This document shows, in pieces, positions 11,219-17,584 of a stretch of DNA of 64,000 nt. The notes beneath the pieces were generated by a model that was not told the origin of the DNA, made no database searches, and saw nothing but the letters and a program-made list of their open reading frames with translations. The position numbers and the translations under genes were made by a program. This DNA comes from a virus (Duplodnaviria > Caudoviricetes). The DNA lies in IMG/VR virus record IMGVR_UViG_3300050821_001527, positions 138,883 through 202,882 of that record; one strand, given 5' to 3'. The stretch's first letter is position 1; each line of letters starts with the position of its first letter.

Positions 11219-12310
11219 ATGAACAACACCGACCAAGAATACTTCCGTCTCCTGCGCCTTATCCTCGATAATGGCCGCACGAAAGTCAATCGAACCGGCG
11301 TGGATACCATCGGCGTTTTCGGCGCACAGGCGCGTTTCAATCTCGCCGAAGGCTTCCCACTTCTAACTACCAAGAAAGTCTTTCTCAAGGCCATCATCCA
11401 CGAACTGCTCTGGTTCATCAAGGGCGACACGAATATCAAGTATCTGGTTGATAACGACGTTCACATTTGGGACGAGTGGGCCTACAAGCGTTTCTGCGAT
11501 GCTCAAAAAGGGACGGACGGAGTTATTACGAAAGCCCTTATTGACCAAAAGCAATTCATTCAGAATATCAAGGAATTTCCTGAATTTGCCGCTAGATGGG
11601 GCGACCTTGGAGAAGGCACCTACGGAGGCATGTGGAGGGCGTTTCCTTACTACCGCGAATACGATGACGGCGAGGATGGTTCCGACTGCGCTACTATACA
11701 ACGCGCCCATGAAACGATTGACCAACTCAAAAAAGTCGTGGATAAGCTGAAAACCAATCCCGATGACCGTCGCATGATTGTCAGCGCGTGGCATCCTTAC
11801 TGGGTTGACCATTGTGCCCTACCGCCGTGTCATTGTCTTTTCCACTTCAACACGGAAGAACTAACCGTCTCTGAGCGACTGGACGTGTATCACAAGGGAG
11901 GCTACAACTTGCTTCCGAAGTATCTTGGCGCGGACGATGCCACGGCGCACAAGAATCTGGATGATATTGGCGTTCCCAAACGCAGGCTTAACTGCTTGCT
12001 CTATCAACGCTCCTGTGACACGTTCTTAGGCGTTCCATTCAATATCGCCAGCTACGCGCTCTTGACGAGCATGATTGCCAAGGTGGTCAACATGGTTCCC
12101 GGCGAGTTTGTCCACACCTACGGCGACTTGCACATTTACAAGAACCATCTGGAACAGGTCAAGGAACAGCTTTCGCGCAAACCGTTCGACAAGCTTCCTA
12201 CCTTGAAACTGAACCCCGCCGTCACCGATTTATTTCAATATAAATACGAGGACATTTCAGTCATGGGATATGAATGTCATCCCGCCATCAAAGCCCCCAT
12301 CGCTGTCTAA
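11219..12310 (+). CDS. thyA: Thymidylate synthase
   Basis: [35 protein letters not shown]...PFNIASY, GDLHIY, IKAPIAV C-terminus. Confidence 0.97.
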
Positions 12311-12975: not shown

Positions 12976-13479
12976 ATGGCAACTTTTCGCGCAATCGTGG
13001 CAATGGGTGAAAATCGTGAAATCGGCGAGGGAGACAAGATTCCTTGGCGTCTCAAGGCCGATATGCAGCACTTTAAACGCACCACCATGAACGGCCATGT
13101 CCTTTTTGGCCGCAAGACGTTTGATTGCCTGCCCAATAAGACCCTCGTAAACCGCACCATTTGGGTTCTGACGCGCCGTAACCCTGACGGATGGACTAAG
13201 ACGACCAACCACGGTCTGACGCTCTCCTGCGCCACCAACGTCGTGGAATCGCTATCCCAGCTTCCCGACGGACAGGACTATTGGGTTTGTGGAGGTTCTC
13301 AAATCTATTCCCTGCTCTTGGACAAGCTGGACGAGGTAGTCTGCACCCATGTTTCGGGTAAATTTTCCCAAGCGGACGCCCACATGTCTGCATTCGAGCA
13401 TCTTTTCGCCCGAAAAGACATCTTGACTACCGGCGAAGGATACAGTATCGTCAGGTATTATGATAAGATTACTGGTTAG
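12976..13479 (+). CDS. folA: Dihydrofolate reductase
   Basis: IVAMGENREIG...IPW.LKADMQHFKRTT...GRKTFDCLP...L.NR...GGSQIY. Confidence 0.93.
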   Translation: MATFRAIVAMGENREIGEGDKIPWRLKADMQHFKRTTMNGHVLFGRKTFDCLPNKTLVNRTIWVLTRRNPDGWTKTTNHGLTLSCATNVVESLSQLPDGQDYWVCGGSQIYSLLLDKLDEVVCTHVSGKFSQADAHMSAFEHLFARKDILTTGEGYSIVRYYDKITG

Positions 13480-13618
13480 AATTTTCTGCGCTTTAGTTTT
13501 TGGGAAGCAGCCCCATTTTCATACGTGGGGCAAATGGGAAACTGAATGCCGCAGCACTTGGTCAAGACAGCATCGCCAATGTCGCACCTGTGGCAAGGAA
13601 CAATCTAGGATATTTTAA
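13460..13618 (+). CDS. Small HxWxxW...CxxCG protein (DUF1660-like), absent from the ORF track
   Basis: MIRLLVRIFCALVFGKQPHFHTWGKWETECRSTWSRQHRQCRTCGKEQSRIF*. Confidence 0.65.
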   Translation: MIRLLVRIFCALVFGKQPHFHTWGKWETECRSTWSRQHRQCRTCGKEQSRIF

Positions 13619-13740
13619 GTGTTGAAGATGGCCCTGCCGATGCCTTTGACGAAGAACCAAAGGTTATTCCAGCGCAGGACGAGAATGCTCAATAGGAAGC
13701 ATTGAACATTGAGTAGCAAACTTTCGAGACGTTCGTTCAC
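13615..13740 (-). CDS. 41-aa hydrophobic peptide divergent from the MunI-like gene
   Basis: GTG start 7 nt after GTGTAAT on the - strand; (M)NERLESLLLNVQCFLLSILVLRWNNLWFFVKGIGRAIFNT*; fills the intergenic gap exactly. Confidence 0.5.
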   Translation of the reverse strand: MNERLESLLLNVQCFLLSILVLRWNNLWFFVKGIGRAIFNT

Positions 13741-13754
13741 TTATTATATTACAC

Positions 13755-14345
13755 ATGGATGGCCTGAAAAACAGAACTGGTTGGCAGAATGCCAGCAGCC
13801 TCAAAGCTTCCGCGACTGAAAGCAGCTTCGCACAGGCCATGAGCGCGGCTTTCGTGGGAACGGATTTTCGTTTGAGGCATAAGCCAAGGGAGTTCCGAAA
13901 CATCTATCTACAAATTCCCTTGGATGCAGCCATCGCCGCCTCCATTTATCAGCCGATTAAGCCTTACAAGCACGGTGTTATTCCCGACTATGCCATTGAC
14001 AACATTGTCACTGGGAAAACGCTCTACGTCGAAGTCAAACGTCAGGATGGCTGGGTGGAGGGAAAGACCAGTTCGGCAGGGAGAGGAAACGCCCATGAAA
14101 GGTCTTGTAAATTCTTTACGCCCGGATTGCTGCAAATTTTAAGGGCCAAAGGGAAGCTGGATGATTCAGTTTTGCCGTTTTGGGCCGTATATCAGGGAGA
14201 TATTGCGCGTGACCCGAAGCGTGTCCGTGAAATCCATTGCTGGTTCAGCGGGTATTCCAACCACTTCTTTCTGTGGCAGGACATAAATATCTCGCATCCT
14301 TTAGTTACCCATTTTCAAACCAAACTGAAACAAATCCTCGAATGA
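13755..14345 (+). CDS. MunI-like type II restriction endonuclease (orphan; no methyltransferase in the window)
   Basis: PDYAIDN...YVEVKRQDGWVEGK.SAGRGNAHERSCK.FTPGL...PFW.V.QGDI.RDPKRVREI matches MunI as I recall it; the PD..(D/E)xK centre is intact. Confidence 0.88.
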   Translation: MDGLKNRTGWQNASSLKASATESSFAQAMSAAFVGTDFRLRHKPREFRNIYLQIPLDAAIAASIYQPIKPYKHGVIPDYAIDNIVTGKTLYVEVKRQDGWVEGKTSSAGRGNAHERSCKFFTPGLLQILRAKGKLDDSVLPFWAVYQGDIARDPKRVREIHCWFSGYSNHFFLWQDINISHPLVTHFQTKLKQILE

Positions 14346-15916
14346 ATCCCATCCCTCTAATCCCGTTCGACAAACCCGAGTGGCGCGTGGTCAAAGAAAA
14401 GCACGTCCGCTACAAGATTGTCAACTACAAGAAATATTACCAGCGTTCGCCCGGAACACCGCGCAACGGCAAGACGATTTTCGTTTATGACTTCGGTGAC
14501 GGGTTGAACGTCATTCGCATGAGCTATTCCGCCTCCAAGGGTGCAACCGGAGTGGAATTCGCCCGCCAAGGAGCCGACACGTTTCGTTTGCGTGTCAGGA
14601 ACGGCAGGCTGGTCATTTGGAAAACCCAACTTACCCCGGACAGGGGCCGCATCGTCCGCAATGTTTCCAACCGCATTGACGACCTGAAAAGAATTTTGCT
14701 GAACTTTGGCAATAAGAATACCTATTCCAAACCTTTCCAGAAGCCTGAACCAAAGCCTAAGCAGGAACAGTCCGATGAAATCCCCCTGAGCCACAGAATC
14801 TCCGAGCTTATGGACAGTAGTAGCGACTGGCCAGAAGTTACGAAAACCCAAGTGCGTGTGATTAAGTCTGTAAACGCACGTCTGAACAAGATTTTGATTC
14901 ACTTCCTCAAGCGTCACGGAATCAAGTTCAAATACGGCAGGGACTTCTTCGAGAATCTGCGTGTCGCCTGCTATCCCTTCACGGAAGGTTTCGCCCTCAA
15001 GAGCAATTCGCTCAACGCGGTTTACTCGCGCCATTTTATTCACGGGGACATTAAGCATGTAGTCAAGAAATGCTTCGGCACGGACGGCGGAAAGCTTACC
15101 CGCATGGTCTGCGAACGAATCCGTAAAGACCAAAACTTCGATGTTCTGTGTCTAGGCGCGGTCATCAAGGGACTCATGCCCGTGGATTATGTCTATCAGG
15201 CTTTGGAGAAGGCCAACGTCACCAAAATCAAGGACGTTGACAAAAATCGAGTAGGCGTCAAATTGAACGTCGTCAGGGCATTACTCAAGAACTACAACGC
15301 CTCCCGCGTTTTGAAGCTCGTTCTCGACGAGAATTTCGGAGAATGGTATTTCAACGACTCCATCATCATTTACGGCCAGCGTAAAGCCGAGCCTGACTTC
15401 CAGATTATCGAAAAGCCGAAAAGCTGGCAGGAAATACACGACTATCTCGCGCCCCGCCGTCTAGCAGCTTCCGTCAAGACCGAAGAAATGGAACTGCCCG
15501 TCTCGCCGAAATACAAGGAGATAGACGGATTGGAATACGAAGGATTCAAGATAGAAGTCCCCAAGCACACGAACGACCTTGTTTCCTACGCCAACCAGAT
15601 GCAGAACTGTATTCGCTGGTATGGCTCACAGGTAGTCGCCAAGCAATGCAACATCCTTGGTATCTACAAGGAGGATAAGCTGGTTTACAACATTTCGATT
15701 CGCAGCAAGGTCATTGACCAGTTCAGGGGTAAGTGTAATTCCGAACCAGACCCGGAGGATAAGTCAAAGATTCTCAAGGCTCTCTTGGAGAAGGGAATCA
15801 TTTCCTCGCTACCCGACGACAGACGAGACTCTTTGGCTCTGGCCCGCGCAGTTATCGCCCCGCCCGTCCCGGTTCCCCTTGTAGTGGCAAACGACGACGG
15901 AGGCGTTCCATTCTAA
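14342..15916 (+). CDS. Large protein with a C-terminal PcfJ-like domain
   Basis: IEVPKHTNDLVSYANQMQNCIRWY...IDQFRGKCN signature; W.E.HD motif. Confidence 0.7.
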   Translation: MNPIPLIPFDKPEWRVVKEKHVRYKIVNYKKYYQRSPGTPRNGKTIFVYDFGDGLNVIRMSYSASKGATGVEFARQGADTFRLRVRNGRLVIWKTQLTPDRGRIVRNVSNRIDDLKRILLNFGNKNTYSKPFQKPEPKPKQEQSDEIPLSHRISELMDSSSDWPEVTKTQVRVIKSVNARLNKILIHFLKRHGIKFKYGRDFFENLRVACYPFTEGFALKSNSLNAVYSRHFIHGDIKHVVKKCFGTDGGKLTRMVCERIRKDQNFDVLCLGAVIKGLMPVDYVYQALEKANVTKIKDVDKNRVGVKLNVVRALLKNYNASRVLKLVLDENFGEWYFNDSIIIYGQRKAEPDFQIIEKPKSWQEIHDYLAPRRLAASVKTEEMELPVSPKYKEIDGLEYEGFKIEVPKHTNDLVSYANQMQNCIRWYGSQVVAKQCNILGIYKEDKLVYNISIRSKVIDQFRGKCNSEPDPEDKSKILKALLEKGIISSLPDDRRDSLALARAVIAPPVPVPLVVANDDGGVPF

Positions 15917-16383
15917 TGCAAAACAAAACATTCGGTTTCCAAACCCAAATGGCGATAGGCGACAAGGGAGAGCAGGACTTCAAACAATACTACGCTCATC
16001 TAGGCCCGGTCAAAAGCGAGGATAGGGCGATTGACTTCATTCTGGCCGATGGCACGACTGTCGAACTAAAATCCGACAGCTACCCGATGGAAAAGACCGA
16101 GAACTTTTTCATGGAAACTTTGAGCGATACCAAGTCCGGCAAGCTTGGGGGTGTCTTTAGGGCAAGGAATGATAAAATTCATTTTTTTGTATATTATTAC
16201 CCCGCCAACAAGACGTTCTTCTGGTTCGAGGTTGAAAAACTTTGTGCCGAAGTCGAAAGGCTGATTGGCACCGGAAAATACAGGGTCAAGTCCATCAAAA
16301 ACAGGTCATGGACTACCGAGGGTTACGCCCTGTCCCGCAGCCTGTTCGAGAAGGTCATGCTGAGAAAAGACGTTTTTCCTTGA
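15916..16383 (+). CDS. Putative PD-(D/E)xK nuclease
   Basis: GDKGEQ...IDFILADGTTVELKSD. Confidence 0.55.
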   Translation: MQNKTFGFQTQMAIGDKGEQDFKQYYAHLGPVKSEDRAIDFILADGTTVELKSDSYPMEKTENFFMETLSDTKSGKLGGVFRARNDKIHFFVYYYPANKTFFWFEVEKLCAEVERLIGTGKYRVKSIKNRSWTTEGYALSRSLFEKVMLRKDVFP

Positions 16384-16414
16384 CTTTAGGCGTAAATACT
16401 GTCAATATCAGTAA

Positions 16415-17584
16415 ATGAAAATCTACGCCGAAAACACTCGCGTCCCAATCAAGTCTTGGTGTGAAAACCCGGAAGCCGGGGCTATCAAGCAGGCCGAGAA
16501 CATGGCCAACCTGCCATTCACTTTCAGACACGTCGCCCTCATGCCCGACACCCATCAAGGCTTTGGTATGCCTATCGGTGGAGTTCTGGCTACCGATAAC
16601 GTCATCATTCCGAACGCTGTCGGAGTTGACATTGGGTGCGGTATGTGTTCCATCGAATCCAACATCCAAACTTGGGACAGGGAACTGTTGACGGAAGCCA
16701 TCAAGGAAATCCGCTACAACGTTCCTGTCGGATTCAGCCGCCATCTTACCGCGAAGCCTGTGGACAAGCTGCCCGCCAGCACGTCCCCGAACGCCTACTA
16801 TGAGAAGTTCCTTGAGCCGTCCCTGTTCCAACTCGGAACCTTGGGCGGCGGGAATCACTTCATCGAATTACAGAAGAACCCGAACGGAAATCTGTGCGTG
16901 ATGATTCACTCTGGTAGCCGCAACATCGGGAAGCAGGTTGCCGACTATTACAACAAGCTCGCCCTCGCTCTGAACCAGCGTTATTTCAGTCAGGTCACGA
17001 AGGAAACCGACTTGGCGTTCCTGCCGCTTGACTCTGCCGAGGGTCAGGCTTACTTGGCGGAAATGACTTACTGTGTCGCGTTTGCCTTGGCGAACCGCAT
17101 GGAAATGATGAACGCTTGCCAGCAAGCCATCTACAAGGTTTTCAAGCCTTTGCAACAGGTCGAGTTCACGAACTTCATCAACATTCCGCACAATTATGCG
17201 AAGGTTGAAAAGCACTTCGGCAAGGAAGTCGTCGTCCACCGCAAGGGCGCGACGAATGCCAGCGAGGGCGTCATTGGGCTAATCCCCGGCTCGCAGGGCA
17301 CCAAGAGCTACGTGGTGCGCGGCAAGGGTAATCGTGAGAGCTTCGAGAGTTGCTCCCACGGCGCAGGCCGCAAGATGGGCCGCATGGTCGCCAAACGCAC
17401 TCTGAACATCGAAGACGAGCAACGCAAGCTGGACGAACTTGGAGTCATTCATGCCGTCCGCGCCAACTCTGACTTGGACGAGGCTCCGGGTTCCTATAAG
17501 GACATTGACGTGGTTATGAGCGAGCAAACCGACCTGATTGACGTTATCGAAGAACGCACTCCTTTGGGAGTCGTGAAGGGGTAA
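16415..17584 (+). CDS. rtcB: RtcB RNA 2',3'-cyclic phosphate ligase
   Basis: MPDTHQG.GMPIG, VGVDIGCG, GTLGGGNHFIE, IHSGSR, HN, VHRKGA, IPGSQG, CSHGAGR, DEAPGSYKDI. Confidence 0.97.
   Translation: MKIYAENTRVPIKSWCENPEAGAIKQAENMANLPFTFRHVALMPDTHQGFGMPIGGVLATDNVIIPNAVGVDIGCGMCSIESNIQTWDRELLTEAIKEIRYNVPVGFSRHLTAKPVDKLPASTSPNAYYEKFLEPSLFQLGTLGGGNHFIELQKNPNGNLCVMIHSGSRNIGKQVADYYNKLALALNQRYFSQVTKETDLAFLPLDSAEGQAYLAEMTYCVAFALANRMEMMNACQQAIYKVFKPLQQVEFTNFINIPHNYAKVEKHFGKEVVVHRKGATNASEGVIGLIPGSQGTKSYVVRGKGNRESFESCSHGAGRKMGRMVAKRTLNIEDEQRKLDELGVIHAVRANSDLDEAPGSYKDIDVVMSEQTDLIDVIEERTPLGVVKG

Follow-up and report, generated by a model that had tools for sequence, protein, structure and literature searches.

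A solitary MunI-family restriction endonuclease gene in a tailed phage genome that lacks CAATTG

We found that a tailed phage carries a predicted restriction endonuclease of the MunI family together with neither a DNA methylase nor a single copy of CAATTG, the sequence that this enzyme most likely recognises. The reading that we favour, and hold to be probable, is that the phage is protected from its own MunI-type enzyme by its lack of CAATTG and uses the enzyme on non-self DNA. The stretch of DNA analysed, hereafter the window, is the final 64 kb of a 202,882-bp IMG/VR virus record (G000), whose genes mark it as a tailed phage: they include those for a large terminase, a DNA polymerase and a tape measure protein of 2,491 aa, along with a tmRNA gene and numerous tRNA genes. 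The record is linear, and neither a terminal repeat nor a circular overlap was found in it, so its completeness stays at the CheckV value of 91%. The identical enzyme protein was found on seven contigs in all, and the four places listed for them are other soil assemblies containing essentially the same phage; one of these contigs, L076, differs from the phage record at 7 positions in 16,980 bases.

The enzyme gene and its neighbours lie at the following positions of the window:

11219-12310, plus strand: thymidylate synthase (ThyA; Pfam PF00303, E 3.9e-104)
12976-13479, plus strand: dihydrofolate reductase (DHFR; Pfam PF00186, E 8.7e-31)
13460-13618, plus strand: 52-aa ORF, two CxxC pairs, no family match; lies between DHFR and the enzyme gene
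13480-13754, no strand: gap upstream of the enzyme gene, 275 bp, containing no controller (HTH) gene
13755-14345, plus strand: predicted MunI-family type IIP restriction endonuclease gene, solitary; ATG-to-TGA ORF, 196 aa
14342-15916, plus strand: PcfJ-like gene (Pfam PF14284, E 4.5e-11), from gene calls on identical contigs
Downstream to about 22595: RtcB (PF01139), dATP/dGTP diphosphohydrolase-like (PF18909), dUTPase (PF00692) and dCMP deaminase (PF00383) genes

With thymidylate genes on one side and dNTP-pool genes on the other, the enzyme gene sits in a nucleotide-metabolism module. The ATG of the PcfJ-like gene, which occupies the place taken in homologous loci by a convergent MT-A70 methylase gene, overlaps the TGA of the enzyme gene (ATGA), and the two genes are predicted to be translationally coupled. 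Contigs from one soil metatranscriptome were 100% identical to positions 13515-13889 and 13927-14077, which gives a weak hint that the enzyme gene is transcribed; such contigs carry no information on strand, level or timing, may derive from carried-over DNA, and are uninformative about the uncovered stretch 14108-16500. The 52-aa CxxC ORF, which was not called by outside gene callers, lies under the RNA-library contig that starts at 13515. On the minus strand, over the enzyme start codon (13743-13770), there is a strong promoter-like TTTTCA-16-TATAAT sequence (10 of 12 matches) with the phage's recurrent GTGTAAT motif, directed away from the enzyme gene and toward a 41-aa antisense ORF (13615-13740). 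This site could be a chance occurrence or an antisense control element of the kind described for some restriction genes. We considered whether a missing Shine-Dalgarno sequence marks damped translation of the enzyme and rejected this idea, as the neighbouring genes have none either and one precedes just 50 of the 182 plus-strand ORFs. In that count, a Shine-Dalgarno-like core was sought at -20 to -4 and found in about 50 of the 182 ORFs, whose starts are a crude longest-ORF call; the ThyA, DHFR, enzyme and PcfJ-like genes are all without it, which may hint at the host group. ThyA itself is 363 aa long and matches the 266-position profile end to end, with an insertion of about 100 aa.

The enzyme matched Pfam PF11407 (RestrictionMunI) over profile positions 8-192 of 193 (E 2.6e-61; 207.2 bits against a cut-off of 25), the PADLOC model REase_II PDLC03520 (E 6.5e-60) and, through residues 4-195, the solved MunI chain 1d02_A (PDB 1D02; E 1.4e-57). 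At 196 aa, compared with 202 for MunI, it is full length. In an alignment with 23 homologues from databases and 4 from viruses, the phage protein kept all 52 columns that are invariant across these 28 members. The invariant columns include P77-D78 and E93-V-K95 of the PD...EVK motif, whose acidic and lysine residues we take to be equivalent to D83, E98 and K100 of MunI. The loop R110-G-N112-A-H114-E115-R116, which presumably corresponds to MunI R115 to R121, is identical to that of MunI, with six of its seven positions invariant in the family and A113 nearly so, and the longer recognition stretch GRGNAHERSCK is also the same in the two proteins. A preliminary description of this DNA had reported that the catalytic and recognition motifs of MunI are intact, and both PD...EVK and GRGNAHER were indeed present in the ORF at 13755-14345. 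The identity of the enzyme is about 49% to a protein on viral contig L002 that is a near-copy of MunI, and 65% to the closest outside homologue. These data identify the protein as an intact, full-length type II restriction endonuclease of the MunI family, and it is predicted to work as a homodimeric PD-(D/E)XK endonuclease. As all sampled members of the family conserve the recognition loop, CAATTG is the natural choice of specificity, and it is most likely the sequence that the enzyme recognises.

Cellular homologues are laid out differently. In the two loci that we inspected, an HTH_3 C-protein gene comes first, the endonuclease gene second, and a methylase gene of the MT-A70 type, convergent with the latter, third. 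No HTH controller gene was found in the 275 bp upstream of the phage enzyme gene, where the only ORF, the 52-aa CxxC ORF, had no HTH match. The preliminary description had seen no methyltransferase in the window, and this held not only there but also in the rest of the 202,882-bp record. A six-frame search of the record with profile models of six DNA methyltransferase families, MT-A70 (PF05063), EcoRI_methylase, D12/Dam, N6_N4, N6_Mtase and C5 (the models other than PF05063 being PF13651, PF02086, PF01555, PF02384 and PF00145), gave nothing at E<=1, and tblastn with two cognate-type MT-A70 proteins gave no match in G000. The same tblastn search found MT-A70 within 3 kb of the MunI locus in 78 of 80 cellular cases and matched all four of the other viral MunI contigs, which served as positive controls; in these four contigs, all of which contain CAATTG, the PF05063 search also placed an MT-A70 gene next to the endonuclease gene. 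Taking cellular and viral loci together, the methylase was immediately adjacent in 82 of the 84 homologous loci checked. Among the 119 ORFs of at least 140 aa in G000, PADLOC and Pfam identified no DNA methyltransferase; they identified homing-type HNH and GIY-YIG proteins and one generic Methyltransf_11 protein in a sugar/glycan locus. PADLOC also found in these 119 ORFs no second type II endonuclease that would match other words eliminated from the genome, and another REase_II match, at 814-1446 of the window, proved to be an HNH domain protein. The enzyme is thus solitary within the 203-kb record, which CheckV estimates to be 91% complete. The two cellular MunI loci without an MT-A70-like ORF within 3 kb, out of 80, are both on archaeal MAG contigs (L144 and L169; Aenigmatarchaeota and Methanosarcinales) and may represent additional solitary enzymes or be paired with a methylase of another family. 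One of the viral contigs, L002 (IMGVR_UViG_3300029858_000330, provirus class; 7.5 kb), encodes at 1073-1663 a protein that, judged by eye against the 1d02 alignment, is nearly identical to Mycoplasma MunI; it has an MT-A70 methylase gene beside this near-copy and two CAATTG sites.

It is conceivable, but in our judgement very unlikely, that the phage DNA is protected by modification after all, with a methylase that is encoded in the unassembled 9% or so of the genome, is of an unrecognised family or comes from the host, or through some other base modification. The record is linear, 91% complete and without end repeats, the Methyltransf_11 protein is present in the glycan locus, and many phage ORFs have no family, all of which leaves room for such a protein. 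On the other hand, the methylase is adjacent to the endonuclease gene in 82 of 84 homologous loci and the flanks here are DHFR and the PcfJ-like gene, and the six methyltransferase families were absent in all six frames. A Z-genome, which the dATP/dGTP diphosphohydrolase-like gene brought to mind, was rejected when our search for a PurZ-type adenylosuccinate synthetase found none, and the ordinary set of ThyA, DHFR, dUTPase and dCMP deaminase gives no hint of a replaced base and points to normal thymine. A modified genome, moreover, would have no need to eliminate CAATTG or 44 other palindromes.

CAATTG is missing from the whole record. The manual reading behind the preliminary description had found none in 64 kb, and our count agreed, giving 0 in the window against 27.7 expected from dinucleotide shuffles and 12-33 from Markov models of orders 1-4; genome-wide, the count was 0 against 73-106 expected. 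The zero extends to codon choice. Gln-Leu dipeptides occur 169 times in the proteome, and codon usage predicts that 21.9 of them would be written CAA-TTG, whereas none is; CAG-TTG is used 39 times. In the other two reading frames, where 10.7 and 17.6 copies of CAATTG were expected, there were also none. These zeros, set against their expectations, show that CAATTG was removed through synonymous codon choice. Sequences that differ from CAATTG at one position had also been described as frequent, and this was borne out by a pooled observed/expected ratio (O/E) of 0.89 (CAATTC/GAATTG, 166; AAATTG/CAATTT, 212). The companion statement that GAATTC is common stood only in part: it is present, with 10 copies in the window and 58 genome-wide, but at about half of expectation (74-114). 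Depletion of star sites as a signature of the phage's own enzyme was considered and dropped, as the neighbour O/E of 0.89 compares with 0.93 in a relative without the gene (G001) and gives no signal.

CAATTG is one of many words that this phage avoids. Genome-wide, 45 of the 64 palindromic hexamers (70%) are absent, GATC occurs 0 times against about 680-870 expected, GTAC once, GGWCC not at all and CCWGG 0 or 1 times (two counts differ), and the degenerate sites GRGCYC and GTMKAC are both at zero. Several asymmetric words are nearly eliminated as well, among them GGTCTC (0 observed, 79 expected), CTCTTC (2, 115), CACGAG (1, 60), GCAGTG (2, 57) and also CTGGAG, while GGATG, GACGC and ACCTGC are untouched. 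The palindromes that survive are AAGCTT, AAATTT, AATATT, GAATTC, TGGCCA, TTGCAA, AACGTT, TAGCTA and CTATAG, and nearly the same set survives in the relatives G001 and L079. Such selective avoidance of words is the pattern expected from many host restriction systems, and avoidance of restriction sites is known from non-temperate phages (Rusinov et al. 2018, PMC6286503), which it defends against the enzymes of their hosts. The caveat in the preliminary description that other palindromes are avoided too therefore turned out to be stronger than it was put there, extending to 45 of 64 hexamers, to GATC and to several asymmetric sites. With 45 of 64 palindromic hexamers at zero, the absence of CAATTG is by itself not specific, and inside this phage genome taken alone it is not remarkable.

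Specificity was restored, despite this broad avoidance, by comparison with relatives, which keep CAATTG. Searches with the DNA polymerase and terminase identified 63 related viral loci, with proteins about 55-76% identical to the queries; these are distant relatives, with DNA polymerases about 60% identical. PF11407 was not found in any of the 11 whole records among them, by a search that does find the enzyme in G000. We read eight of the eleven in full (1.06 Mb in total) and counted 31-82 CAATTG sites in each, with O/E between 0.56 and 1.22 and a pooled count of 449 against 487 expected, so that an equal depletion in relatives lacking the gene, which the preliminary description had named as evidence against its proposal, was not seen. 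Among the 45 words that are absent from our phage, CAATTG ranks first in retention by the relatives, whether by pooled O/E, by minimum O/E or in G001. Were the enzyme's site drawn at random from the words missing from the phage, this rank would arise with a chance of 1 in 45, or about 0.02, a statistic computed after seeing the data and over eight relatives that are not independent of each other. The complete 164-kb genome of G001 illustrates the point: its word O/E values correlate with those of G000 (Spearman 0.70) and it has nearly the whole forbidden set (GATC, GTAC and CCWGG all at 0, 25 palindromes missing and most of the rest close to zero), and it contains 82 CAATTG against 88.5 expected. 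A 9.7-kb contig, L079, has the same ThyX-PcfJ-RtcB gene order without a MunI gene and permits the same set of words, yet has two CAATTG sites. We considered whether the equivalent slot of L079 holds an alternative nuclease and rejected this: the 212-aa protein there has no MunI similarity and no family.

The comparison is one among distant relatives. Megablast of 8 kb around the enzyme gene against 50,697 phage records gave no match, and the enzyme protein had only one other match among phage records, on a gut contig at 56% identity. The PcfJ-like neighbour had no relative in the viral_contigs or metagenome_contigs sets, and a protein search returned just three relatives, at 44-47% identity, from which the L079 DNA was obtained; a close sister phage with or without the enzyme gene was not found in these searches. 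Some other words are private eliminations of the G000 lineage, kept by relatives and without a matching phage enzyme, namely ATGCAT, CATATG, CTCTTC, CACGAG, GCAGTG and CTGGAG, with ATTAAT nearly so. The data thus partly support the view that CAATTG is, among the eliminated words, the one specific to the gene-bearing lineage, though other private eliminations exist.

These observations bear on a different account, which we consider unlikely, in which a MunI-type restriction-modification system of a host purged CAATTG, as other host systems purged the other 44 palindromes, and the gene is a tolerated selfish or neutral passenger with no role against the host. The gene may have come from such a host, whose DNA would be methylated, and it would be harmless in a genome free of sites; the sites could have been lost first and the gene acquired afterwards. 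Avoidance that is broad and site-selective, that includes asymmetric sites and that leaves others untouched is the signature of selection by host restriction-modification, and several private eliminations in G000 have no matching phage enzyme, so that a host MunI-type system would be a sufficient cause. MunI homologues do occur in soil phyla such as Acidobacteriota. MunI-family genes are nevertheless rare in cells, with 261 stretches among about 185,600 species genomes, and the failure of the relatives to avoid CAATTG is consistent with this rarity. That the phage's only type II endonuclease should match the eliminated word that relatives avoid least (1 of 45) would require the further story of capture from that very host, and no donor is visible, the best outside homologue being 65% identical.

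The gene itself argues against both recent arrival and neutral carriage. Its GC content of 0.491 and GC3 of 0.553 compare with genome gene means of 0.496 and 0.560, and it contains none of the genome's forbidden words, whereas six homologous genes have 3-9 each. As it matches the genome in composition and is without forbidden words, the gene appears to be an old resident and not a recent capture; the description of the endonuclease as captured, insofar as a recent event was meant, did not survive this comparison. The intact invariant residues argue for purifying selection, and their retention together with the matched composition points to long-term selection of this kind over the neutral carriage that a passenger would imply. 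We looked in the same light at the proposal that the protein no longer cuts DNA, being for example a site-specific DNA binder or silenced, in which case the missing methylase would need no explanation. Among the solitary restriction endonuclease genes of prokaryotes, inactive or fragmentary ones are frequent (99 of 272; Ershova et al. 2012, PMC3488263), and PaeR7I loses restriction activity once its methylase is removed, with the endonuclease gene unmutated (cited in PMC3488263). The phage protein is full length and keeps 52 of 52 invariant columns, catalytic residues and recognition loop among them, and inactivity would leave unexplained why its site coincides with a lineage-specific elimination; we regard this proposal as highly improbable.

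In the reading that we favour, a MunI-type homodimer would cut CAATTG and the phage would carry it without any methylase. Its own DNA, having no CAATTG, would be immune, and the enzyme could be produced at any time in infection without self-damage. The broad avoidance of restriction sites would be the background that allows this phage to live without modification, and, provided that the enzyme is active, any new CAATTG arising in the phage would be lethal, so that the enzyme itself would now maintain the zero. The likely use would be to cut unmethylated host DNA, leading to shut-off and a supply of nucleotides, a use suggested by the position of the gene in a module of thymidylate and dNTP genes. 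Co-infecting phages are an alternative target, and the fully read relatives would offer 31-82 CAATTG sites each. Destruction of host or competitor DNA is, by analogy with T4 denA/denB and chlorovirus endonucleases, the role that we propose; target and benefit, like activity and specificity, are inferred, and either site loss or the gene may have come first. Of the original idea, a captured restriction endonuclease with self-protection by site elimination, the intact enzyme, its solitary state and the site-free genome are upheld, and recent capture is not. A bolder version, which we advance only tentatively and think doubtful, is that the phage's own endonuclease and not a host system drove and enforces the removal of CAATTG, a self-imposed avoidance that replaces the methylase, and that the weapon is aimed mainly at sibling phages. 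CAATTG would then be one of the few specificities still able to hit siblings, because these have purged almost every other 6-bp palindrome.

The case probably combines kinds of system that are known separately: an enzyme of the MunI family, an endonuclease without a methylase whose carrier is protected by lacking the site, and a nuclease that a phage turns on non-self DNA. R.MunI (Mycoplasma sp., C^AATTG, PDB 1D02) is of the same length class, can be aligned end to end and has identical catalytic and recognition motifs. MunI and nearly all homologues checked are encoded in units of three genes, alongside a C-protein and a convergently transcribed MT-A70 methylase, whereas the phage gene has neither and lies in a nucleotide-metabolism operon. 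For solitary endonucleases, the comparison is with R.PacI. This HNH enzyme recognises an 8-bp site made up of A and T only, and in its GC-rich bacterial carrier such a site can be absent with little selection. R.PacI, from Pseudomonas alcaligenes, has no cognate methylase, and its self-protection has been explained by the absence of its site from the carrier genome (Ershova et al. 2012, PMC3488263). The phage record resembles this in being without methylase and without recognition site over the 203 kb examined; unlike PacI, the phage lost a 6-bp site that was expected 73-106 times, and did so through synonymous codons. In the literature searched we found no phage example of immunity by site absence, and PacI is the one precedent.

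For nucleases that discriminate against non-self DNA, phage T4 offers a likeness in outline. Its endonucleases II (denA) and IV (denB) cut host DNA and not phage DNA, which contains hydroxymethylcytosine, and denA also lies near the nucleotide genes frd-td-nrd. The enzyme described here would likewise spare phage DNA and lies near thyA and DHFR, with host cutting the presumed function. In T4, however, the distinction depends on base modification, and the enzymes are unrelated and show little sequence specificity; in this phage, sequence content alone would make the distinction. Chlorovirus restriction-modification systems, reportedly described by Agarkova et al. in 2006, include type II endonucleases that the virus encodes and uses against host DNA. 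In chloroviruses each endonuclease has a partner methylase, which protects the viral DNA; the phage shares with them the virus-encoded type II endonuclease and differs in having no methylase. A type II endonuclease that has no methylase is considered deadly for the organism carrying it, and the accepted exception, a carrier without sites, is a rare-cutter in a bacterium. The word-selective elimination of palindromic and asymmetric sites is of the type described by Rusinov and colleagues (PMC6286503), and departs from it in that one eliminated word matches the phage's own enzyme and is not avoided by relatives.

What sets the phage apart is a common 6-bp specificity in a 203-kb genome where about 50 recodings keep CAATTG out of the coding sequence. 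If the enzyme is active, a virus would be able to tell self from non-self by sequence content alone when it deploys a nuclease against host or rival DNA, which would join the study of restriction-site avoidance, a defence, to that of nucleases used in offence, two fields that are usually kept separate. The phage would also be a natural system for measuring how strongly a single enzyme shapes the word usage of a genome, and the enzyme is a candidate new MfeI/MunI isoschizomer from soil.

The relatives vary in their own right. GATC is absent from the whole 164-kb genome of G001 and from the loci of about 22 kb of G005 and G009, and no palindromic hexamer that contains GATC occurs in any of these three whole records; CCWGG is absent from G001, G004 and the loci of many other relatives. 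The sets of avoided words thus vary among the phages of one clade, and the group would suit the study of host-specific restriction-modification pressure.
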